Shown: piece after piece, positions 6,105 to 64,000 of the stretch
Numbering within the stretch: the first letter of the stretch is position 1
How the letters are laid out: each line of letters opens with the position of its first letter
Assembly (NCBI RefSeq): GCF_964188315.1
Contig: NC_135662.1
Location: forward strand, 85,312,001-85,376,000
From: Podarcis muralis
Lineage: Eukaryota
Length of the DNA stretch: 64,000 nucleotides
Reading direction: 5' to 3'
Notes under the pieces: generated by a model
What the model was told of the DNA's origin: nothing
Database searches by the model: none
What the model saw: the letters and a program-made list of their open reading frames with translations, nothing else
Program-made: the position numbers and the translations under genes

Positions 6105-30086
<23,982 letters not shown>

Positions 30087-32500: not shown

Positions 32501-32968
32501 AACTCCCATCATCCTTAGCTTGCAGGACTCATGGTCGGGGATGATGGGACTTGTAGTCCGAAAACAGCTAGAGACCCAGGTTTGGGGGGAAACGGGTTAT
32601 CTCTGATACTAATTGCACTTGCTTCTGAGGAAATGTGCCTCAGAGAGAATTGTCAGTGCAGCTAAGACATGATTGTAGTTGGAGAGCCCAATACATTTTA
32701 GGATTAAATTGTGCCCCTCTTGGTGGTAAAATGCAATTATTTCTTGAATATGTCATACTTTGCTGCACTTCACTGTTACCTCAAAATCTGCTATCTGAAG
32801 CATATTTGATGTATCACCCTGACAGTAGTAGTGGCAGACCCGATGACAGCACACAACAAATAACCAAAGCTTTTTATATTTATCTAATAGGAAAATTATG
32901 GGAAAGTAGAAGCATTTCTCAATGAAACACCTTCTGGAGTCAGCCTTTTGTAAATACTGTCTTGCAGT

Positions 32969-33517
32969 ATGATGTCATTTCTCTGCATTAACAGAAAATG
33001 TTGGAGAGTCCCAATGTTGCTGAGAGGAATGTTGAACCAGGAAGGATTCAGGTTTAGATCTCTTGCTGCTTCGTGCTCTCTCTATGGGAAGAAGAAAACA
33101 ACCATCCGGTATGAAAACATTGACCAAGAAAAATACAGAGATTTGATCAACTACCTCACATCCTACAAAGACAGTTCTCAAAGACCTGAATTGGTATTTG
33201 AAGAAGGTGACATGCTAAATGGACCAGAAAGGAAATATAAGAACTCATACCAGGAGGATGAACCAAAAGTTTGTAGGAACTGGTGTGCTCTAATGAATCC
33301 CAATAAGAGCTCTTTGCCTCAAGAAACTGCTCCGGGACAGCCTTTGCAAATCAGTTTGCAAAGGAAAAACTTGGCTAGTGTGACAGCTGTTCTACAACAG
33401 ACCATGCCTGTGGAGCAAGCTTTTTATCTGGAGAAGTGGAAACAGCGGATGATTCTAGAACTTGGGATAGAGGGTTTTGCAGAATACACTAAAAGTAAGC
33501 AATGACTAAATGCATTG

Positions 33518-40467: not shown

Positions 40468-48982
<8,515 letters not shown>

Positions 48983-51734
48983 GATGAGATCCGCGATTTC
49001 ACCTTTCCTCCTGGCCGTTCCGTTTTCTGGGAACTCCGCCCTTCCCTGGGGTTCCAGGTGAGGCGCGCTGGCAAGGGGTCGCGGCTTCTGCTGGCGCCCC
49101 CCGGGCCCGATCCCCCTCCTCAAGGAGAGCAAGAGACCCCACGCCGGAGCCGGAGGTGCCCCCCTTCACCCCCACCCCCTTTCCAAAGGTGTCTCTGAGC
49201 AAAGGCACCACCAGGAAACTTGGAGGGAGCATGCGTGCTGCAAACATAACGGTGTCAACAAGCCTCTCTACCTGTCCGACCGGTTGGAGCAGCTGCTTTG
49301 TTCCAGCCCTTCCTTAGGCATGAATGTTTGCAAAGAATGTAACGTCTGAAAATGAGGAGGGGGGATTCCTGGGACCGTAGACTTCCCTCCCCAGGTCATT
49401 TCTGTCACCAGCAAGAGCAAGCACCCCCCTCTCCTGACACTAGCCGAGACCCCCCACCAACCCAGATGGAGCCTTGGGGTTGCATGCTGCTGTCTCCAAG
49501 GTCCTGGAAGCTGATTTGGGCGCTGAGCTGCTCTCCCCTTGGGGCTCTAAATGTGTATCTGGTTGCCATGTACAAACACACCAGCTAATTTCATATTAAT
49601 ATCATGAATGCTTCTGCGGGACATGCAAGAATTTCCCTCTAGCTAGGTTTTGTGTGTGTGTGTGTGGACACGCAGTGCATCCATGGGAAGTAACTACAGG
49701 CTGACATTCAAAGCCAAGCAGCTCCAGGCACTTAAATTAAGTTATTTTTTTGCGTCTGCTTTGCATGCAGTCATCTTCAGAGGCCTCTCTCTCTCCTCTG
49801 AGTTTGGTGATGAAGATGCCTCCCAGCACTGCAAGGGGTAGGGCAAAGGGTGCTTCTCCAGCATGTAAGCGTCTAGATGAAACACGAGAGCCTACGTTTT
49901 AATGTGCATTAAAAAATAATAATGGATGGAGCTGCCTGCTATGTACATCAAGGACTCTGCTGTGTGTTTTATGTAGAGCTGCAAAGCAAATACTGTGGAG
50001 TATAGGCCGCTTCTCACTAGAACCAAAAGAAGGAAAAATGACCCCCGATTAATAAGGCAACAACATAAGATAAATAAATCAAGGGTAAGAAACTTAAATG
50101 AACTTTATAATCTATCTATATACACAAAATCTAACGGCTGTGATGCCCATAAATAATTTTTTTTTTACATAGAGTTGAATCTTATTATTAAAAAAGGCAC
50201 AGAAAGGCAATAAAACAAAAATCCAAAAAAGTGAGTACCAAATATATAAAACCTATAATACAATAACTGGGATGTATAGATCCATAAACAAAAAATGAAT
50301 ATGTGTGTCAATCACTGAAAAAAGTGGCAGGTACTCTATATCCCTTTGCACCAGAAGTCCCACCTTTTTATAGGAAAGGATATGAATTCAATATTAAATT
50401 ATATGCTGTATATATATTCTTTCCTGTGCATCTGGTTCTTCCAAGGTTGCTGCTTCCAAGTCCCCACAATGTACAGGCTCATGTTTAAAATGCCCCCGTG
50501 CCTTTAGTGACTTCCATGCCCCTAGCGTGGCGTCCTGCCCCTCATCCAATGACCAATACAGCATGGGATCAGACCCTGTTGTGGTGCTGAGGGGCCCATC
50601 TTGATCTCATGGCCACGATGGGCCTACTATCCCTAGGTGACTGACCCCTGGCCAACAGGAAGACATTTCAAAGCTCTGTTGTCCTGAGGCCTACATTTTT
50701 CTTTGTATTTTGTAGGAGACACATGGGACGATGTTATAACCATGTCGCAGTTAAGAACCCAAAATGTGAAATATGGTTCTAGACTTCCCTTGTCCTTAAT
50801 CCTAAACACACCTGCTCTTATTTCCAGCTGCGGAATTCAGACAGTTTTACTGACAAAGCCCTGTTCGTCCAAGGTTTGTGTTTAGAGTCTTCTGGTGGAG
50901 TTAGAAGGCAGCAAGAACAACATTTGATTTATTTGTTTTTCTTTTTAATATTTTTTTTACTGTACAACATCATGCACAAATGAAATAACACATCGCACTC
51001 TCGTCCAGAAGATGAAGTTTAGTCAATACAACAGAAATACAACCTAAACAGCATAATTACGGTAAGTTCCTACCCCAGACAACTATCTATATAGGGGGCA
51101 ATATACAGTTTATGCTAACCGAAAAGCCTCAGCAATTGGAGAATCGACTAAGGCAACACTCTCAAGGCCTCATCAGAGACTGTATTTACAGCAGCATCAA
51201 GATCAGCATGAAGGCGAGCCCTTCTGTCCTCAAAATGTCTAGCAATCTTGTCACAGCAGGTCTTTGACAGTTCTAGCACCCCATCAGTCAGGCAGCTTTG
51301 CTATTCAGTCAGCTGCACTCTGCCACTTCCACGCTAGCCAGCTGGACATTGCCTGGCCTGCTTCAGTCCTCATTAATTTTGAGGAAAACTAAGGAGCACA
51401 ATGAGTGGCGCAGTGTCCGGGTGGACGCTCCCAAGAGATTGAGTCAATAGCCCTCCTTATCTCCCTGGTCCACAGTGAGGTAAGGAGCTCAACGGGATTG
51501 CTGACATTGGAAAATCCCCATCAGATTCCATAAGTCATCCAGTTGGGGCGACCCAGGATGTTTTGGCACTGGAGGCAAAACAGAATATTCTGTCCCCCTG
51601 GGGCGCCGGATTAAAGGTAGTGCAAGCAGTTCCTCAGCACAGGGCTCTGAGCTAAGGAGAGGTAAAATTAAGAAGATCCATACTTGAGAAGATCCATTTT
51701 GGGGCACTGAATTTTGACCTCACACAGGGCACCA

Positions 51735-52741: not shown

Positions 52742-53004
52742 GAATCATAGAATTGTAGAGATGGAAGAGGGACCAAAGGGTCATCTAGTCCAACCCCCTG
52801 CAATGCGGGATTTTTTTTGCCCAATGTGGGATTTGAACCCACAACCCTGAGATTAAGAATTTCATGGAGAGCATGAGACTCTTAATCTCAGGGCTGTGGG
52901 TTCAAATCCCACATTGGGCAAAAGCTTCCTGCATTGTAGGGGGTTAGAATAGATGGCCCTTGTGGTCCCTTCCATCTCTGATTCTATGCTTGACTGAGCT
53001 ACCC
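52742..53004. mobile_element. tRNA-Lys-derived SINE with CR1-like tail, present as a fold-back inverted pair
   Basis: gagcatgagactcttaatctcaggg..tgggttc matches tRNA-Lys(CTT). Arms about 52746-52866 and 52872-52988. A related single copy lies at about 20817-20960. Confidence 0.75.
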
Positions 53005-53128
53005 CAGAAGTTACTTGTAGGGAAGGCCAATAAAGTCACATGGATGGGGCCAAGTTGTTTTGCTTTTTCCCCTCATCCTCCTCGCTTGCAAAGGTGTGGA
53101 CACAAAAGCGTTGCAGTTGCATAAAGTA

Positions 53129-53354
53129 CAGTGGTACCTCAGGTTACATACGCTTCAGGTTACAGACTCCGCTAACCCAGAAATAGTGCTTCATGTTAAG
53201 AACTTTGCTTCAGGATGAGAACAGAAATCGTGCTCCGGCGGCACAGAAGCAGCAGGAGGCCCCATTAGCTAAAGTGGTGCTTCAGGTTAAGAACAGTTTC
53301 AGGTTAAGAACGGACCTCCGGAATGAATTAAGTTCTTAACCTGAGGTACCACTG
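53129..53354. mobile_element. Tc1/mariner-pogo MITE
   Basis: TA-cagtggtacctcaggttacatac ... gaggtaccactg-TA; same family as 54704-54934, 56665-56881 and 56926-57140. Confidence 0.85.
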
Positions 53355-53477
53355 TACATAGTACCTAACTAAAACAAAAAGCGTCTGACCTTGGTTTAGA
53401 AGGGGTCCCTGACTCCCTGCTGTCAAAATTTATATTTTGAGTAACTGTCACTATAGCCATGCATTACTCTGAAATTT

Positions 53478-53866: not shown

Positions 53867-54703
53867 ACTCTGAAATAAGCCCCATTAAATGCCATAGGGA
53901 TTACTCCCAGTTAGGACTGGAGCCTGAAATGGTTAGTTTTAAAGGTGCCACACAGAACTTCAATAGACCTTGCAACTCCCAGGAAGTAGGGTTCGGATTG
54001 CAGTTTATCCTGTAACTCTAAACCCATTTACCTGGGAGTAATCCTTTCCCTATAGACTTCAATGGACTTTACCTCTGAATAGAACCATGGTTAGGATTAA
54101 GCAGTTAGTTGTCAAATTCTCTTCTACCACTGGTGACCTGTTTTAAAGGGAATCCTACAGGCTGACAAAGCTTCTGTTATCTAGGGCTGAAACTGGATTA
54201 ACTGTCCAATTCCTAGCGCAAAGCACAATTCCTAACGGGGGGAGGTTTAATCCACTTGGAGACACTCACATGAAGGTTGTGCTTGTGTTTATTAAGGCTG
54301 CAGTAATAACAGCCGCTGCCCCCATGGGCTGGAGTGGGTTTATCCCGCAGTTAAGTGCAAAGGCCTACGCATGTCTACTCAGAAGTAAGCTTACTCCATG
54401 ATAAGTCTGTAGAGGCTGCTTGAAGCCTAACTTGGTTTCTTTTAAACAGTACTCTGGACTTATTTTAAATAATAAAATTAATGCCACTCCTCCCTTCTTC
54501 AGCCAGCGCCCCCCACATCACAATGCAAGCTTCTCCAGTCTCCAGAATTAACTATTGCTTTCTGTTGCCCCGCCTCCAGCAATAAGATAAAGAAAAATAC
54601 CCATCCCCTCTCAGCCAGATCCCTTTGCCATAACAAGACTCTCACAAGGGAACCACTCCCTGCATTTCCTAAGAAATGGCTGGCTCCTGAAGCATTGCAA
54701 TTA

Positions 54704-54934
54704 CAGTGGTACCTTGGGTTAAGTACTTAATTCGTTCCGGAGGTCCGTACTTAACCTGAAACTGTTCTTAACCTGAAGCACCACTTTAGCTAATGGGGCC
54801 TCCCGCTGCCGCCGCACGATTTCTGTTCTCTTCCTGAAGCAAAGTTCTTAACCTGAAGCACTATTTCTGGGTTAGCGGAGTCTGTAACCTGAAGCGTATG
54901 TAACCTGAAGCGTATGTAACCCGAGGCACCACTG
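54704..54934. mobile_element. Tc1/mariner-pogo MITE
   Basis: Inverted copy of the 53129-53354 family, TA-flanked. Confidence 0.85.
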
Positions 54935-55899: not shown

Positions 55900-56520
55900 C
55901 ATGTTTCTCCCTCCGACCTTCCCGGGGGGAGTTCAAGCCTCGTAGCTGCAGCAAAAAAACAGGGATTTCTGAAGCCGAACCAAATCTGTCATAAGACACG
56001 CGCTGCCCGCTCTTTGCCCCTCTCGCGGCGCGGAACGGCGAGCTCCGAATGGAACCGGAAATCGCGGCGGTCAGGAGAGCGTCCAGGGCCTTTGCCTCTT
56101 TGACGCCGAGCCGCTGGGCATGCGCAGGAGGCCGCGCATGCGCCTTGGGGTCCCAGCGGGCGCTGAGGGGAAGGCCGAGACCGCCGGGCATGTCGACGGT
56201 GTCCAAGGCGGTTCTGGCGGCCTCCGTCGCGGTCTCGGGCGCCGTCGTCGCGGGCGTCCACCTCCAGCAGAGCCGCGTCAGGGAGGTAGGCCTCTCCCTC
56301 CCCCCACCCGCACTCCCCCCCCCCTTGCAGGCGGGAGCATCGGGGGAGGGGCGGATTCGGCGGCAGAAAGAGCCCTTGACTTTCCGGGGCAGATGCGTTA
56401 TTATTAGGGGGAATGCATGTGACCCTTTTGCCGAGTAGGGACTGAACGGTGCGCGTGTAAACCAACGGGCAAGATGGCTGTGGGAGGGGCACAGGCAGCG
56501 GGCACGCCCCCTCCCCCCAA
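55900..56520 (+). promoter_or_regulatory. PET117/KAT14 CpG promoter with an NRF1 site
   Basis: GCGCATGCGC at 56134-56143, GCATGCGCA at 56118-56126, CCGGAA near 56056. Confidence 0.75.
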
Positions 56521-58676
56521 ATGTACACTGCTTTTTCTAAAAAAAAATATGTTTAGGGGTACTCTCATTTTGACTCAAGAAAATCACCATTGTACAGTTC
56601 AAGTCGGGGGAAATAAATACAGTAAATGGACAAAAGTACAAAGAACATGCATCATTACCTCATACAGTGGTACCTCGGGTTACATACGCTTCAGGTTACA
56701 GACTCCGCTAACCCAGAAATAGTACCTCGGGTTAAGAACTTTGCTTCAGGATGAGAACAGAAATCGTGTTCCAGCGGCGCGGCAGCAGCAGGAGGCCCCA
56801 TTAGCTAAAGTGGTGCTTCGGGTTAAGAACAGTTTCAGGTTAAGAACGGACCTCCAGAACAAATAACCCGAGGTACCACTGTATCATTCTTTCTTTTTGT
56901 CTTTTGTACCTGTCACTGGAGAATACAGTGGTGCCTCGGGTTACATACGCTTCAGGTTACATGCTCCGCTAACCCAGAAATAGTACCTCGGTTTAAGAAC
57001 TTTGCCCCAGGATGAGAGCAGAAATCGCGTGGCAGCAATGAGAGGCCCCATTAGCTAAAGTGGTGCTTCAGGTTAAGAACATTTTCAGGTTAAGAACGGA
57101 CCTCCGAAATGAATTAAGTACTTAACCTGAGGTACCACTGTATTACACAGCTGACAGCTCACAGTAATTTTCCTACTCATATTGAAATGCTGCCCCTCAG
57201 TGAGGCCAAACTTCCATTAATAAAACTCCACACATCCACATTCTACACTGCTTCATACATTAAACACTCACTTCCGTCTGAGACTCAGGAAATGAGGCCG
57301 CCGTTGGGGGGTAGCAACAGATTCACTGCACTAGAGAATATTTAATATTTTTAGTTTCTTCTCCTGTTAGATTGGCAAAATGTTTAGGGGTATGCTTACC
57401 CCTGCGTCTCCCCAGAAAAAAGCACTGCACAGGTTTAGCATATACACGCACATCACAACAAACCGAGAAGGAACCCCGAAATGTTGTAAAGATGTCACTG
57501 GAAAATCTCTCAAAGGGTGGGACAGGGTGTCTGCGGTCTTTTCCAGTGAGTTTTCAATCGTACGCAATTTCACCAGTGTGTGTGGTGCCTCGGAACCCGT
57601 GCTATTTTCCCTAGAAAAAGAGGTACCAGAACTCACCATGAACACCTCCCTCCTTCTCTTAGCATGGCAGTGGCACCCACTTGACAAAAAGCCCTGCTCC
57701 AAACGTAACCCCCACACAAATGGGAGATGGGGGGGGGGGCTGCCTGGACTGCCAAGTAGTCATGAGAATATTCCCTGGATTTCTGTCCAAAAGCCTGGAG
57801 GGGTAGAAGTAGGAAATTCTCCTATATAGCCAGATATTTTTTACACACGCACACATACACTTGCTATGAAGCCGTTTAATATGTTTCTTTTCAAAAAGGT
57901 GTATAGGAGCTGGAGAGAAAAGGAAGCAAAAATGAACAGAGGTATTTGACACTTTGCATAGAGGAGAAATTGCATCTGCTGTTGCTGCCCTTTCCCCCAA
58001 TTCAACCATTCCTTCTTCCATGTTATCTTTGCACTTTGTAACATAAATTTCCCCCAGCATTTTATGCCCCAGTGTTTCATATAGCCACAGAAGGCCTCTG
58101 ATTATTGGTTTGTGATATAGTGATCTTCAGGTAATGACCCTTTTCTTTATGATTTGCAGATGGCTCAGTCCTGTATTGGAATGAGGATGTATACTTCCTA
58201 CAGTTAGCAAAACCTTTGAAGTTACTTTTGCAACAGTATGATTGCGTTGTAAGATTCACAGTTGGCCTTAATTTCCTATAGCAGTACCTTTACACTTTCT
58301 CAAGTTTTTGAACAGTAGATTATTAAGAGATATATAGGAGAAGGGGGCGACAGAGGACGAGATGGTTGGATAGTGTTTTCGAGGTTACCAGCATGAGTTT
58401 GACCAAACTGCGGGAAGTAGTGGAGGACAGAGGTGCCTGGCGTGCTCTGGTCCATGGGGTCACGAAGAGTTGGACACGACTAAACGACTAAACAACAACA
58501 ACCATAATATGATGAGATTTCTCTTTCAGAGGCTACGTGAAGGAGTGCTGAGAGACTTTGAGAGGCAGCATCGTAAGCAAGAAAATCTTCGCATTTTGGA
58601 GCAACAGATTGCTTTGACTGAGCAACTTGAAATGGAAAGAAGCAAAATGCTCATGGGAAAAGAATCCTCACAGTAA
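56190..58676 (+). CDS. PET117: Cytochrome c oxidase assembly factor PET117, 2 exons, 80 aa
   Basis: Exon 1 56190-56285 (MSTVSKAVLAASVAVSGAVVAGVHLQQSRVRE, donor GAG|gtagg); exon 2 58530-58676 (RLREGVLRDFERQHRKQENLRILEQQIALTEQLE). Matches PET117 and synteny. Confidence 0.93.
56665..57140. mobile_element. Two tandem Tc1/mariner-pogo MITEs (56665-56881 and 56926-57140)
   Basis: Each has CAGTGGT(A/G)CCTC TIRs and TA TSD; 44 bp apart in the PET117 intron. Confidence 0.85.
58337..58500 (+). mobile_element. RTE-BovB 3' end, about 30 bp upstream of the PET117 exon 2 acceptor
   Basis: Homologous to 31495-31648. Confidence 0.85.
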
Positions 58677-58795: not shown

Positions 58796-59051
58796 ATGGA
58801 TACTAATGTGTACATGAGCGAGATGATGAGCCGTCATGATGATGAAGCCACAAGGACATCGCCTTCAGAAGGGCTGGAAGAAGGAGAAGTGGAAGGAGAG
58901 ACTCTTCTCATAGTAGAGTCTGAAGATCAGGCATCCGTGGATTTGAGTCATGATCAGAGTGGAGACTCTATAAATAGTGATGAAGGGGACACATCCTGGA
59001 CAGAAGAGATGTCTTATTACTGTGAAAGATGTCAGAAATGGATACCAGCAA
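58796..59051 (+). CDS. KAT14: Lysine acetyltransferase 14 (CSRP2BP), first coding exon only; the gene continues beyond the window
   Basis: MDTNVYMSEMMSRHDDEATRTSPSEGLEEGEVEGETLLIVESEDQASVDLSHDQSGDS...YCERCQKWIPA matches the KAT14 N-terminus; donor A|gtaagg at 59051. No further KAT14 exon was recognised before 64000. Confidence 0.93.
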
Positions 59052-59867
59052 GTAAGGCTTCCTAATTCTTGGTTATTTTAAATAATAAAAATGTGTCCTT
59101 TGTTTTGCCCTTCTGACCTCAAGGCCTTGGTCAGGAAGACCTACAAGATTGTGACCCTTGCTAAGCTGGGCCTTCAGGAAGCAGATCAGACGAAAGCCAG
59201 TTGAAAGCACATCCTTCCCAAGGCACAAACCTAGCAAAAGGGGATTCCTTTTTCCACATGACTTGTAGTCCACAATTATGAGTGAGTGGCAGACCTCAGA
59301 AGCTTCCTGGGCCTCCTGCTTGCTGGTAAATCAGCTATGCCCCTTTCAGAAGAAAGAATGGGCGGATGCCCCATTCCTCTTTTTAAAACATGGGGAGGAT
59401 TTCCCGAAGAACCCCATTGACAGGAAGCCAGAGATCATGCTGCGCAGGACCCACAAGCCTTAGCCATTAGAACCTTTATGGCAGCTTCCTTCATGGCGAG
59501 TGTGTGCCTCCTCTAAGCTCAGCCCCTTCTGCTGGATGTTGCCCATAGCACCACCCATAAGCACTAGGGACTATGAAAACTAGTTAGCCTGTGCCTACAC
59601 AGAGATGCAACTGCATATGCTCTTCAGTTTTCAGCCCTAGCCGAGTCCACTGGCATGTGGACTTCAAGGCCAAGGCTAGCCTCTTCAGTGATCCCTTTAG
59701 AAGGGGCTAGACTAGCCTCTTAGGGAATGGCTGGATGGCGTTCACAAGAACTACATAAAAGCTATAGATAAGATTTTTTTTTCTATTTGAGAAAAAAAAA
59801 TCTGCATGCACAATTCTTAAGATTTCAAAAGGAATTGCACTTATGATACATCACATATATCACATAT

Positions 59868-60235
59868 TGTCGAGAAACCAGCTCGACATCAGTAAGAAAA
59901 TCAGTAAGAAATCAGTCTCACACCAAGATGACTTGAAGAAAAAGCTTTGGCTTCAGCCGTGCCATGTTTATTGTGTGCAGTAAAAAATAAATCATCCTCT
60001 CTCCTCCAGCACTGAGCTTGCTCTGCCTGGTACTCCAAGGTACCAAATCAAAGGAATGTAACCTTGCTTTTGCCCACAGACAAAGAGAGTGTTATGCTAC
60101 GTGAGCCAATCATTAGTCTAGCATGAGGTGTTCACGTGCTCATCATGCTCTTAGCAATATCTCGTGCTGTAAAATCACTCTGCAATAATAAGAACTCTGC
60201 TCATGCTCTTATGTACAAGCAATCATTTTCCCACA
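59868..60235 (-). repeat. ERV 3' LTR (368 bp)
   Basis: Direct repeat of 63536-63903. Viral-sense AATAAA at 59967-59972, CCAAT at 60106-60110; preceded on the viral strand by a PPT. Confidence 0.96.
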
Positions 60236-60249
60236 TGCCCTCTTTTCTT
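60236..60249 (-). promoter_or_regulatory. Polypurine tract
   Basis: Viral strand AAGAAAAGAGGGCA immediately before the TG of the 3' LTR. Confidence 0.85.
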
Positions 60250-60296
60250 GTTTATATTATAAGAGGGACCATTAGTCAGAATCGCATTCCCATTAC

Positions 60297-61200
60297 CTAA
60301 GCATTTATATTTTGCAACATAAATTCCCCTTGTAATCCCTGTGGTGGGCCTTGGTCGAAACCACCATGCAATATATTGGGAAATAAAAAAAAAGCAAGTA
60401 TTGAATACATAATAAAACCAACAATACATGCAATTACAATCAATAATATTTTTCTTAACCATACTCCATTAGGTAACCAAAAAAATAACCAATCCCATGG
60501 ATCAAAACCTTCAGGTGGATTCAAAGGATTATGGGTTATCATTTGTTCCATATAATCAATAGTAGCGGAGATATTGGTTGATTGATCAGTTATATACATG
60601 CAACAATGAAAATGAATTAAGGCATAAATTCCACCTTTAGAGGCAAGGATTACATTTAAAGCATAAAAATTTTATAAAGCAACTTCTCTCATTTCTGACC
60701 TTTTTTTTGTTTTTTGTTGATTATTTTTAAAACAAAGATGGTAGAATTAAAAACAAAGCTTCGGTCCAATTTGCCACAGAATAACCATAAATCAGATTGA
60801 AGTAAATATGCAGATTTACTGCTCTTTCTCATCCAGTCCAACCAAACATAAAAATCTCTACACGCAGCTTGTTGTTCATAGGTCATGTAGGTTGTGACAT
60901 TATCAACTGAGGCTTTTGGCCTATCACTCATAGTGGTAATAAAAAAAAAAAAAAACAAAAAGCAAAAAAAATCCATCAAAATACTCATAGGTCCAATTAC
61001 AATATGGATAATGACCTAAAAAGTTATTGCTATTATGATTAAAACGAAAACAATAAGACACTGTTTCTGCAAGCGATAAAAACACAGGCGATAAACATAT
61101 ACGATTGTCCTTTATATTATTGCTAATCTTATATGAAGCATTTACTGGAATGCTAGAATACCACCACCAAAAAAGGCTCAAAGCTTCGAGAAGCTTTTTA
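60297..61200 (-). pseudogene. env: Degenerate env (SU remnants plus gamma-type TM C-terminus)
   Basis: My translation of 60695 down to 60597 is EMREVAL*NFYALNVILASKGGIYALIHFHCCM, a decayed immunosuppressive domain plus CX6CC. It continues into ORF 60297-60599 with a membrane-proximal WDWLFFWLP and a hydrophobic anchor. The SU assignment is tentative. Confidence 0.75.
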
Positions 61201-61879
61201 AAATCATTTTTCTCAGCAGCTAAAAGGCACTAGCCAAGCATATTTCGCTTCAAGCATATTCCGCTTGCTGTAACTAAAAAGATTGCAACAAGGTCGAGAA
61301 CAGAGCCCATTGTATTCGCAGGTCTTGTTAAAAAAAACCATGTTGCAACTTGCTTTCTGTCCGGGAACCATGCCAAAGCACAAGAATGAAACAACTGGAA
61401 CACACTGAAATCCCTTCACCCCCTCCCTTGCCAAGAGTCCACAATAGTTCCAAGACAGCCCTCTGTACATGCTCAGGGGAATACATCATAAGGCAGGACT
61501 CCTGAGGGAGGAGAAAAAAAGAAGTGATCTGGGGGGTAAAATCCAAGTGATGTCAATAAGGATGAGAATGGTAAATTAGTCCAATGGCCACTTCCGAGCA
61601 ACCTGTGTGATATTTCGTGGCTCGATTATTGGCATGTAAAAACCACAATCCAGAAGAAGTCACACAACCATTTCTGCAGATACAGGAGCCCATTTGCTGT
61701 AAATAAGTCTGATGTATTGCTCCTTGTACTGCTGAGTCAAAAGTCCAAGCCCAATGAAGCGTGATGACACAGATGGGATGGTCGCTATTAGGAGGCAGCA
61801 AAACTGTAATGATGTTTGGTGGTTGAAGTGGCTTCCCAGGGAAAAGGGGGGCCAATGCAGTAGGGATGAAGATGGCCTT

Positions 61880-62192
61880 TCAGCGTGCCAGGAAACACTG
61901 GAACAGCTGTGGAAGAGCCTCTTCCATTGCAGAGGTGATTGTGATCTTGTCTGCTGGATCCTTATGTCCTTTAAGGGCAGAAAATAGTGGAGACAAAGTG
62001 GAGGTGGGCAGGTCCAAATAACTCTTTATCCAATTCAGCTGTCCAAGAATTTGTTGTAAATCCACCAGTTTAAGATGATGAGGAAACTGTAGTTGAGGCG
62101 TAACTGGAATGGCAGCAGATGCTGTCAGCTTGTGTCCCAGGTACATAATGGGTAAAGTCCGCTGGATTTTTTCCTTAGCCACTGTCAATCCA
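61880..62192 (-). pseudogene. pol: Retroviral RT fragment (post-YXDD palm/thumb), class II-like
   Basis: LTVAKEKIQ..YLG..LKLVDLQQILGQLNWIKSYL..LSPLFSALKG resembles betaretroviral KIQ...YLG...LNDFQKLLGDINWIRP. Joined directly to truncated NC; protease, RT N-terminus and integrase not recognised. Confidence 0.85.
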
Positions 62193-63290
62193 ACAGGTTT
62201 TATCCTTTGCAGGATTTTGGGACACGGCGGAGGACAGAGCCGTGGCTAGCAAGCGAGCTTTATGCATCTCAGTGCCCACTGACTGGCAGGCTTTAAGCAT
62301 GTCTGCAATGGCTATATTTGATGTTGCCATCAAAGGGCGCAGCACTTGCTTACAGTCCTCATGTGCATGATAAAACGCAAGCTGGCAAACAATCGCTTCT
62401 TGTGCTGCCAGGTCCTGAACTTGCCACTTGAAGGTATTGTACAAGCGATCAACAAATTGTCCATAGGGCTTTGCAGGGCCCTGTCTGATGCTGCCCCATC
62501 GGCCATTGCGCTCATTTTTTTCATCAGGCACGGCGGACAGGGCCTCCTGAGCAGCAGCGGTGGTGGCTGCCCAATACATAGGATCAAGGGCCAACTGTTG
62601 GGCAATAGGAAGAAAATTGCCTCCTCTCGTCAGCCCATCAAGAACATCAGTTTGGGTCAGCATGACGGGGGCTGGGGGTGCAGGAGCAATCACAGGAAAG
62701 AGATTTGGAGTATCAGAATCAAAAGGCAGCAACGGAGCAGTGGTACAAAGAGTCTCTTCTTGGAGAGGAATGGTAGAAGCGGTGCCAGGTGCCTTGGGCG
62801 GAGGAGGTGGAAGAGCGGGGGGTGCTGAATGCGAAGATTCTTGGAGAGGAGTAGTAACGGGAGGCGCAGGAAGCGAAGAATGCAGAGGAGGGACGACAGG
62901 AGCCGAAGGAGAAAAAATGTCTGCCTGTTTAGGAGGCTGATAAGACGGTGCTTCTGAAAACAGCATGAGGACTGGGAGGGGGGGCAAAGGAGCTGAAGCA
63001 GCGGCCAGGAGGAGATTTGTAGGAGTTAGGCTTGAGATAGCCTTATAAACCTTACAGCAGGCATGCAAAACTTTGACATCAATCTGAGGGTGGTTTTGGA
63101 AAAATTGTCCTATTTTTTCCCAGTCTTTTAAACTATAATTCCCATGCTGAGGAAACCAGGGACAGTGAGTATCCAAGGCTTCTATAAGCGACTTGATGTC
63201 AGCATCTGAGACGAGAAGGCTGTTGCTGGCCAAAAGAGATTTAAGGTCTTCAAAAAACTTTTTCTGTGGTGGAGAGAGAGACTGCCCCAT
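62175..63290 (-). CDS. gag: Betaretrovirus-like Gag (MA, late-domain region, internally deleted CA, NC truncated), 371 aa open frame
   Basis: MGQ myristoylation start; CPWFPQHG..LKDWEKIG matrix motif as in HERV-K/MMTV-type Gag; PSAP; MHR IRQGPAKPYGQFVDRL; ends at DKTCW, the start of a zinc knuckle. Confidence 0.9.
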   Translation of the reverse strand: MGQSLSPPQKKFFEDLKSLLASNSLLVSDADIKSLIEALDTHCPWFPQHGNYSLKDWEKIGQFFQNHPQIDVKVLHACCKVYKAISSLTPTNLLLAAASAPLPPLPVLMLFSEAPSYQPPKQADIFSPSAPVVPPLHSSLPAPPVTTPLQESSHSAPPALPPPPPKAPGTASTIPLQEETLCTTAPLLPFDSDTPNLFPVIAPAPPAPVMLTQTDVLDGLTRGGNFLPIAQQLALDPMYWAATTAAAQEALSAVPDEKNERNGRWGSIRQGPAKPYGQFVDRLYNTFKWQVQDLAAQEAIVCQLAFYHAHEDCKQVLRPLMATSNIAIADMLKACQSVGTEMHKARLLATALSSAVSQNPAKDKTCWIDSG

Positions 63291-63518
63291 AATGGCAAAA
63301 GAAAGGGGGGGGGGTTGGGAGCACTCACCAGGGATCCACTAGGTGGATGAACGACGCGTCTGCAGCCCTTGCCGGGCGAGATAAGTGCTGATAAGTCCGT
63401 AACGTAATCCAGAATCACATACACGGGGTACCAAGGGAGCACTCACCGGGATCCATAGCGGATGAAAGACGCGTGGTGAGCGCTGAACGATGAGAAACAA
63501 CGTGGAGTCCGAAGGTAG

Positions 63519-63533
63519 TCACACGGGGCACCA
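63519..63533 (-). promoter_or_regulatory. Primer binding site complementary to elongator tRNA-Met
   Basis: Viral strand TGGTGCCCCGTGTGA is the complement of the recalled vertebrate tRNA-Met(e) 3' end ...CTCACACGGGGCACCA (15 contiguous matches, 16/18 overall). Confidence 0.85.
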
Positions 63534-63535
63534 AA

Positions 63536-63903
63536 TGTCGAGAAACCAGCTCGACATCAGTAAGAAAATCAGTAAGAAATCAGTCTCACACCAAGATGAC
63601 TTGAAGAAAAAGCTTTGGCTTCAGCCGTGCCATGTTTATTGTGTGCAGTAAAAAATAAATCATCCTCTCTCCTCCAGCACTGAGCTTGCTCTGCCTGGTA
63701 CTCCAAGGTACCAAATCAAAGGAATGTAACCTTGCTTTTGCCCACAGACAAAGAGAGTGTTATGCTACGTGAGCCAATCATTAGTCTAGCATGAGGTGTT
63801 CACGTGCTCATCATGCTCTTAGCAATATCTCGTGCTGTAAAATCACTCTGCAATAATAAGAACTCTGCTCATGCTCTTATGTACAAGCAATCATTTTCCC
63901 ACA
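63536..63903 (-). repeat. ERV 5' LTR (368 bp)
   Basis: Direct repeat of 59868-60235, no difference seen on reading; PBS lies 2 nt inside it. Confidence 0.96.
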
Positions 63904-64000
63904 ACATATATATCTCCAAAATAGAGACAGATGTGCCCACCAATTGAGGTTATATGGATTTCTGTAAGAGGTGATTAACAAAGCAAAATGCAGAGTGGAT

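Follow-up and report, generated by a model that had tools for sequence, protein, structure and literature searches.

A defective class II provirus with identical LTRs in Podarcis muralis, probably recombined from defective copies and mobilised in trans

How does a provirus that encodes almost none of the retroviral enzymes come to have two identical LTRs? The question is raised by a ~4 kb element on the minus strand at 59868..63903 of a 64,000-nucleotide stretch of the Podarcis muralis genome (the window; NC_135662.1, positions 85,312,001 to 85,376,000), the features of which are listed in Table 1. A preliminary description had seen no difference between the LTRs on reading, and exact alignment bears this out, with 0 differences (368/368) and identity that ends at both edges. 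The LTRs are in direct orientation with TG...CA termini, and among the 34 self-matches of at least 150 nt in the window they are the only pair at 100%, the next being at 93%; a scan of the 368-bp LTR for TATA motifs found none. The 6-bp target-site duplication, described as intact, is indeed perfect and not extendable to 7 bp, and a 6/6 match has a chance of about 3e-4. An integrated provirus is recognised by direct TG...CA LTRs, a duplication of 4-6 bp, and a primer-binding site (PBS) and polypurine tract (PPT) adjoining the LTRs, all of which are present.

Table 1. Coordinates of the provirus, its remnants and its flanks within the window.
Feature	Position	Strand	Remarks
Host exon 5' of insertion	58796..59051	+	splice donor at 59052; provirus antisense to exon
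Target-site duplication, left copy, 6 bp	59862..59867	.	perfect vs right copy
3' LTR, 368 bp	59868..60235	-	identical to 5' LTR
Polypurine tract, 12 purines	60238..60249	-	2 nt before 3' LTR
Env TM remnant, gamma type	60292..60772	-	covers ISD region, membrane span and tail; broken by two frame changes and one stop; CX6CC not intact
SU/TM deletion junction	60772..60773	-	SU end, furin site and fusion peptide gone; junction and out-of-frame tail also present in P. muralis P0016
Env SU remnant, two frames	60773..61151	-	73-83% identical to Podarcis Envs
387-nt segment, origin unassigned	61166..61552	-	occupies place of CXXC-bearing part of SU in relatives
env start, 46 codons then stop	61553..61693	-	45/46 identical to P0016, 41/46 to P0022
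Stretch 5' of env	61694..61922	-	match to the N-terminal part of P. lilfordi P0021 from 61922 to about 61816
RT remnant: palm end and thumb, without active site	61923..62191	-	74/80 identical to P0014 over 62191-61952
Gag/RT deletion junction	62191..62192	-	nucleocapsid, protease and most RT gone; junction tail shared with P. muralis P0002
Truncated gag, open, 371 codons	62175..63290	-	matrix, proline-rich region, end of capsid N-domain, capsid C-domain
In-frame capsid N-domain deletion junction	62678..62679	-	same junction in P. muralis P0011
Leader	63291..63535	-	CpG-rich, internally duplicated, two splice-donor-like sites (63446, 63328)
Primer-binding site	63519..63533	-	2 nt after 5' LTR; incomplete match, first 15/18 nt, to tRNA-Met PBS
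5' LTR, 368 bp	63536..63903	-	AATAAA at LTR position 264
Target-site duplication, right copy, 6 bp	63904..63909	.	perfect vs left copy

The insertion had been placed in an intron of KAT14. Pfam identifies PET117 as the gene neighbouring the host exon, ahead of the provirus in window coordinates. The exon itself we take to be the first coding exon of KAT14, a name that tool searches did not confirm, and the provirus would be intronic because of the splice donor; the following host exon was not seen in the sequence read around the provirus. Lying antisense in an intron, such a copy would most likely affect its host little.

Coding capacity was compared with P0014, a Podarcis lilfordi gene model with all of the gag-pro-pol-env domains. 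The provirus covers 0/86 protease residues, 22/169 of the RT palm and fingers, 0/131 of RNase H and 0/35, 0/94 and 0/38 of integrase, which together with the broken env confirms the earlier statement that protease, most of RT, integrase and an intact env are missing. Gag, too, is incomplete, with 53/150 capsid N-domain and 1/40 zinc-knuckle residues covered, a defect absent from that list. Six-frame and frameshift-aware comparisons of 61152-61951 with P0014 found no remnants of integrase, RNase H, protease or env, scores being within the shuffle range; the best was to integrase, yet 3/30 shuffles were as high. The lower end of the RT remnant was set by the start of the P0021 match, and matches of this piece to TAL repeats were dismissed as summed weak repeats. 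By its sequence, the provirus cannot supply protease, RT, RNase H, integrase, nucleocapsid or a functional Env of its own, but it retains the termini of the LTRs along with the primer site, the leader and the polypurine tract. The leader, presumed to be the packaging region, has 17 CpGs (obs/exp 0.92) and a fold more stable than shuffles (z -2.3; 3/100 as good); it is the sole one of 39 folding windows with z < -2, a frequency near chance.

For Gag and Pol, Pfam gives Gag_p10, Gag_p24_C and RVT_thumb, and the best PDB matches are 8c9m for Gag, 7sr6 for RT and 3jca/7usf for integrase, entries that we take to be HERV-K and MMTV structures; there is also a match to the M-PMV matrix. On sequence grounds the element belongs to the class II (beta-like) ERVs and combines a gamma-type env with a tRNA-Met primer site. 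Betaretroviruses are primed by tRNA-Lys, and those of type B carry a dUTPase between gag and protease. The primer site here, corresponding to tRNA-Met, departs from the genus Betaretrovirus type B; no Pfam or PDB match to dUTPase was found for that stretch of P0014, which has no counterpart left in the window copy. The family Env is a TLV_coat protein with CXXC and CX6CC and not the beta-type Env of type B (MMTV/HERV-K-like) viruses, by the Env-type criteria for betaretroviruses (ISD, CX6CC) in PMC9967133. For the primer comparison we used the tRNA-Met PBS as printed in PMC1084362 and the tRNA-Met-CAT-1 end from PMC13338051. Type-D viruses (PMC9967133) and the python ERV PyERV (PMC3230843), compared by features, resemble the family in their beta-like gag/pol and in an ISD and CX6CC-type TM, but differ in the primer (tRNA-Met here, not Lys) and in that a dUTPase is undetected in P0014. 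The Podarcis EnvR group 1 (bioRxiv 10.1101/2024.03.17.585361) is similarly a Podarcis gamma-type Env without an N-terminal RBD; it has CX9CC whereas the window family has CX6CC, and the two are therefore distinct.

The match to P0021 just 5' of env scores 113, with shuffles at 40 or less. The 387-nt segment contains an acceptor-like splice site ending at 61502. Compared on both strands with nine family proteins, it gives no match beyond a marginal score of 42 to P0021 (maximum 40 in 15 shuffles); it has no second copy in the window and no Pfam match, and its 90-aa ORF has no Atlas match. A role as an RNA-export element, like that in PMC11379458, is unsupported, there being no Rfam match and no stable fold (z +0.5). 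We note that the env frame changes fall at homopolymer runs, which are also sites of sequencing error.

The relatives used are all predicted proteins, from P. lilfordi (P0014, P0012 and P0021) and P. muralis (P0002-P0011, P0016 and P0022). Gag counts refer to 11 named relatives, P0013 (one of 12 Gag matches) being left out throughout, and the Env junction test to 10 lacertid Envs, with 19 of the 29 Env matches left out. Identity within the Podarcis family is 74/80 for the RT piece, 82-93% for the retained part of capsid and 73-98% for the env pieces. The preliminary description had proposed a search for copies sharing the deletion junctions, and by protein comparison each of the three recurs in a different P. 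muralis copy: the Gag/RT tail in 1/11 Gag relatives (P0002), the capsid deletion in 1/11 (P0011), and the SU/TM junction with its shifted tail in 1/10 Envs (P0016). The full set was not found: at the protein level both gag junctions occur together in 0/11 Gag relatives and all three in no known copy. The window copy thus has these junctions in common with its family but combines what is elsewhere found separately, and its 387-nt segment is absent from the nine relatives tested. The capsid junction falls within a Pro/Ala repeat, so that the same deletion could have arisen more than once, and the gaps in P0011 could reflect gene-model splicing. Both zinc knuckles are present, without such a deletion, in two of the 11 Gag relatives (P0009 and P0012); nine of the 11 are open truncated Gags, but they were found because they are open. 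P0014, P0009 and P0022 are candidate helpers. P0014 has all domains and the RT identity given above, but is not proof of an intact helper because its spliced gene model skips parts of pol and env; P0022 is an Env of 500 aa with CXXC, furin and CX6CC motifs, in a cluster of 23 sequences.

The interior is unevenly decayed. Residues private to the window copy number 26/181 in 3' env against 9/252 in the 5' half (Fisher p 6e-5), a contrast weakened by the faster evolution of Env than of gag regardless; a relative-rate test in SU gives a weak result (18 vs 7, p 0.043). At the nucleotide level 3' env is about 7% changed (a rough estimate), and such decay, if post-integration, would predict about 49 LTR differences. 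C>T and G>A changes are equal (7 vs 7), as in genomic decay, which rules out APOBEC-type one-strand hypermutation. Gag is itself a mosaic, P0011-like at 11/13 informative sites in residues 167-212 and mostly P0002-like elsewhere, a pattern matched in extremity by 1/2000 permutations. Because the env decay exceeds what identical LTRs allow, and the junctions are present in other copies, the defects predate integration, as the preliminary description had proposed. Its wording of a very young provirus is overstated, as 368 identical bases set no more than a ceiling of about 2-4 My on the age (95% upper bound 2.1-4.1 My with published Podarcis rates; median 0.5-0.9 My with a flat prior). Its non-autonomous ERV likewise survives in that the defects are the older, though not yet as a uniform subfamily: with three junctions found singly and no copy having the whole set, we read it as a single recombinant drawn from a swarm of defective copies.

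We favour, with a probability of roughly 0.8, a non-autonomous lacertid class II ERV provirus that derives from a defective parent mobilised in trans and is a recombinant of defective copies. RNA of the defective parent would have been packaged by proteins from a competent relative, and template switching between co-packaged defective RNAs would have joined a little-decayed 5' half to a long-decayed 3' env and to a gag tract of another lineage. Two identical LTRs would then have been rebuilt during reverse transcription, and the integrase of the helper would have placed the copy in the host intron in antisense orientation, creating the 6-bp duplication, no more than 2-4 My ago; spread could have been either intracellular or by reinfection with a borrowed Env.

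Co-packaging with template switching is established retrovirology, and the mosaic gag and uneven decay fit it and gene conversion alike. A young provirus could have had its interior patched after integration by conversion from other defective loci, so that the mosaic arose at the DNA level; the lack of a copy with all junctions agrees with this, and HERV-K115 provides a documented case of conversion between ERV loci (PMC2760466). However, several independent events, some with kilobase deletions, would be needed in the short span allowed by 0/368, whereas co-packaging is one known process that accounts for everything, and patching seems improbable. That the insertion is old and decayed in place, its LTR identity coming from 5'-3' LTR conversion or from assembly collapse or polishing, would suit the extent of change in 3' env and the homopolymer position of its frame changes. 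It is nonetheless quite improbable: gag and the RT piece would both remain open at 5-7% decay with a chance of 7e-4 to 4e-5 (under the stated assumptions), the decay is uneven while the target-site duplication is perfect, an A-run frameshift and the three junctions are common to other copies, and no further repeat pair in the window is homogenised.

One round of reverse transcription can yield identical LTRs with large deletions, and an intact virus might have lost these regions in the very round that gave this insertion. This we regard as very improbable, as env decay is strand-symmetric and the junctions common to three other copies contradict it unless those are gene-model artefacts. Processed ERV copies mobilised by LINEs are exemplified by HERV-W, and such an origin would not require viral enzymes; both LTRs are complete here, a poly(A) tail is absent and the target-site duplication is 6 bp, making it extremely improbable.

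An extension of the favoured trans-mobilisation reading is that the defective class II ERVs of wall lizards form a swarm that is still active and recombining, with the truncated Gag kept open by selection and this insertion segregating in an intron of the PET117-KAT14 locus; as a whole this seems unlikely. The truncated Gag may in that case co-assemble with helper Gag or interfere with it. That gag and the RT piece are open and env is shattered has a chance of about 0.06 at 2% neutral change, only a hint of selection on Gag.

ETn/MusD and IAP I-delta-1 of mouse are non-autonomous, helper-dependent LTR elements. For mouse VL30, PMC4859993 reports identical LTRs in 42/86 full-length copies and tRNA-Met among the primers, and the likeness extends to a coding-defective interior, intact LTRs, PBS and PPT, and helper dependence. 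The present provirus differs from VL30, ETn and IAP-delta in its lizard host, its retained open truncated gag and its mosaic of separately deleted lineages, and in that its mobilisation is deduced.

The helper-dependent mechanism itself is well known, and as a strategy familiar in mice it is apparently undescribed in wall lizards; squamate ERV biology is thinly described. If confirmed genome-wide, these observations would extend the ETn/VL30 pattern of helper-dependent amplification to squamates, and the deletion junctions would serve as markers for dating and population work in Podarcis. If the insertion segregates, it would offer a testable source of regulatory variation at two genes, one for a mitochondrial assembly factor and one for a chromatin acetyltransferase.

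The LTRs of the provirus are equal at all 368 bases on exact comparison, with the identity stopping at each edge, and they form the sole 100% pair among 34 self-matches of at least 150 nt in the window (the runner-up is 93%). The termini are TG...CA, and the 4036-bp provirus, on the minus strand, is bracketed by a perfect 6-bp duplication; both observations agree with the preliminary description, which had reported LTRs without differences and an intact target site duplication. The primer-binding site begins 2 nt past the 5′ LTR, and its first 15 of 18 bases are those of the tRNA-Met site printed in PMC1084362 and are complementary to the end of tRNA-Met-CAT-1 as given in PMC13338051. A polypurine tract of 12 purines lies just ahead of the 3′ LTR. 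The leader has high CpG, an internal duplication and two donor-like sites, and folds somewhat better than its shuffles (z −2.3; 3/100 equally good), the only one of 39 scanned windows with z below −2. Read on the host strand, the provirus has acceptor-like sites and AATAAA motifs that serve as leads only.

Coordinates of features in the window
Feature	Position	Strand	Remark
Provirus	59868-63903	-	
LTR pair	59868-60235, 63536-63903	-	
Gag|RT junction	62191..62192		
Capsid N-domain junction	62678..62679		
SU|TM junction	60772..60773		
Segment within env	61166-61552	-	387 nt
Acceptor-like sites	63677, 60009	host strand	
PET117 exons	56190-56285, 58530-58676	+	Pfam
85-codon exon	opens 58796		donor 59052
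Presumed MGME1 and OVOL2 exons	32954-33505	+	
	40468-40833	-	
	48731-49165	-	
tRNA-Met primer motif (15 nt)	51720-51734		1 mismatch; adjoins (TAA)n run
	26025-26039		2 mismatches
tRNA-like sequence	52851-52920	+	Rfam 32.4 bits; no ARAGORN call
Repeat with terminal inverted repeats	53127-53356, 54702-54911, 56662-56884, 56923-57143		220-230 nt; about 88-91% alike

The gag reading frame (371 codons) contains Gag_p10 and Gag_p24_C by Pfam, and the piece downstream is RVT_thumb. With the RT piece as query we found P0014, a Podarcis lilfordi gene model of 1845 aa in which Pfam recognises 12 domains, matrix being the first and TLV_coat the last; the provirus covers 704 of its residues: matrix (58/58), capsid N-domain (53/150) and C-domain (71/71), zinc knuckles (1/40), RT palm/fingers (22/169, active site absent), RT thumb (43/50) and Env (228/333), with nothing of protease (0/86), RNase H (0/131) or any of three integrase domains. 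Directly past the thumb is sequence upstream of env, recognised by its match to P0021 of P. lilfordi. The env start runs for 46 codons to a stop and is followed by the 387-nt segment and then by SU pieces. A deletion taking out both fusion peptide and furin site separates these from a TM remnant with frame changes, one stop and a CX6CC motif that is not intact. An interior lacking protease, most of RT, integrase and an intact env, as first described, is thus borne out. Comparisons with family proteins, database searches and fold gave no origin for the 387-nt env segment, which has an acceptor-like polypyrimidine-CAG site and a short tandem duplication and is possibly captured host or other-element DNA.

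The deletion junctions recur in relatives, singly. The Gag search yielded 12 proteins out of 8000 scored candidates, and among the 11 named ones P. muralis P0002 ends in the Gag|RT junction tail (1/11), P. muralis P0011 has the same capsid deletion (1/11) and none has both (0/11). Among 10 lacertid Envs taken from 29 matches, P. muralis P0016 has the SU|TM junction and an identical out-of-frame tail; P0002 is listed on a 107.5-Mb contig and P0016 on a 101.8-Mb contig. Of the anticipated copies with the same junctions, one predicted protein is known for each junction. Seven of the 11 Gags have a smaller nested capsid deletion and two keep both zinc knuckles. Eight (P. muralis P0003-P0008, P0010 and P0011) share one different nucleocapsid truncation, so amplification took in more than one deleted lineage.

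Gag residues 167-212 are P0011-like at 11/13 informative sites and the remainder is mostly P0002-like (1/2000 permutations as extreme). Residues 131-212, a tract picked after the alignment was seen, are identical to P0011 at 70/76 positions and to P0002 at 51/66, and outside it the values are 178/235 and 260/284; alignment of the proline-rich region is uncertain in places. At sites where two relatives agree, provirus-specific differences number 26/181 in 3′ env and 9/252 in the 5′ half (p 6e-5). This 3′ decay, roughly 7% at the nucleotide level, predicts about 49 LTR differences if acquired in place, against 0/368 observed. C>T and G>A changes are equal (7 each), in keeping with long genomic residence rather than editing. 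In a relative-rate test SU gives 18 vs 7 (p 0.043) and Gag 12 vs 13, and faster Env evolution weakens the decay argument. Since junctions are shared, decay exceeds what the LTR identity permits and gag is mosaic, the defects are older than the integration, as had been proposed.

Zero differences in 368 sites limit divergence to ≤0.8%. The 95% upper age is 4.1 My (flat-prior median 0.9 My) at 1e-9 per site per year (PMC13219662) and 2.1 My (median 0.5 My) at 1.98e-9 (PMC8760935). "Very young" is too strong, the bound reaching 2.1 or 4.1 My, and present-day activity does not follow from it. Given P. muralis lineage splits at 6.24-2.5 Mya (PMC8760935), the insertion is likely specific to some P. 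muralis lineage.

What we observe is that enzymes are missing, cis signals kept, junctions shared and gag mosaic. Our preferred reading, with a probability of about 0.8, is that helper proteins packaged the defective RNA, that template switching among co-packaged defective RNAs would have joined parts of different history, and that the LTRs would have been regenerated and the product integrated by borrowed integrase. Conversion after integration, a process able to distort LTR dating (PMC2760466), could place the mosaic later and seems unlikely; an old insertion whose LTRs became homogenised or were collapsed in assembly, favoured by the env decay and opposed by the perfect duplication, is slightly less probable still. 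A one-off deletion, beside junctions found in three relatives, is very improbable, and a LINE-processed copy, beside complete LTRs at both ends, is hardly credible. For helper packaging, P0014 is identical to the provirus at 74/80 residues of the RT piece, P0009 and P. lilfordi P0012 are full-length Gags, and P0022 is a 500-aa Env with all motifs in a cluster of 23 sequences; these show competent-looking relatives at the level of predicted proteins. They are predictions and the P0014 model skips parts of pol and env, so an intact helper with the same LTR is hypothetical.

The best PDB matches (8c9m, 7sr6, 3jca) are to beta-like retroviral structures. CXXC and CX6CC both occur in the family Env and form a gamma-type signature (PMC9967133); a type-B betaretrovirus is ruled out by this Env and the tRNA-Met primer. 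In overall plan the provirus is similar to type-D and python ERVs (PMC3230843). The nearest relatives of the provirus are Podarcis proteins, and the Env search also gave relatives from Zootoca and from snakes, both elapids and viperids. The P. muralis Envs P0023 and P0028 are alike at the N-terminus and TM tail and unlike in SU, that of P0023 resembling P0022, pointing to probable env recombination across the family.

The provirus had been placed in a KAT14 intron. PET117 is its neighbour, and the 85-codon exon, presumably the first coding exon of KAT14, has a donor; Pfam, PDB and Atlas searches gave no support for the KAT14 name. No next host exon was seen past the donor in the stretch inspected, so the intronic, antisense placement is inferred. 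The PET117 stop and the ATG of the putative KAT14 exon are 119 nt apart in apparently a single exon, which suggests a bicistronic transcript; mammals have a similar arrangement. Pfam finds C2H2 fingers in the OVOL2-like exons, and the presumed gene order agrees with MGME1-OVOL2-PET117-KAT14 in other amniotes. Elsewhere in the window, the 51720-51734 motif could be a tRNA-derived fragment or LTR-element remnant, the tRNA-like sequence probably represents a SINE head of tRNA origin, and the four-copy repeat resembles a non-autonomous DNA transposon.

Literature searches, which covered subscription papers thinly and did not extend to repeat databases, turned up no account of this Podarcis family. 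The Podarcis Env treated in bioRxiv 10.1101/2024.03.17.585361 has CX9CC and is a different Env from the CX6CC type here; its supplements may list the family. PMC9723728 left retroviral transcripts out. The presumed working mode of the provirus is that of mouse ETn and IAP I-delta-1. Mouse VL30 also works in this way (PMC4859993). The provirus is real and well supported, and represents a further case of an already known type.
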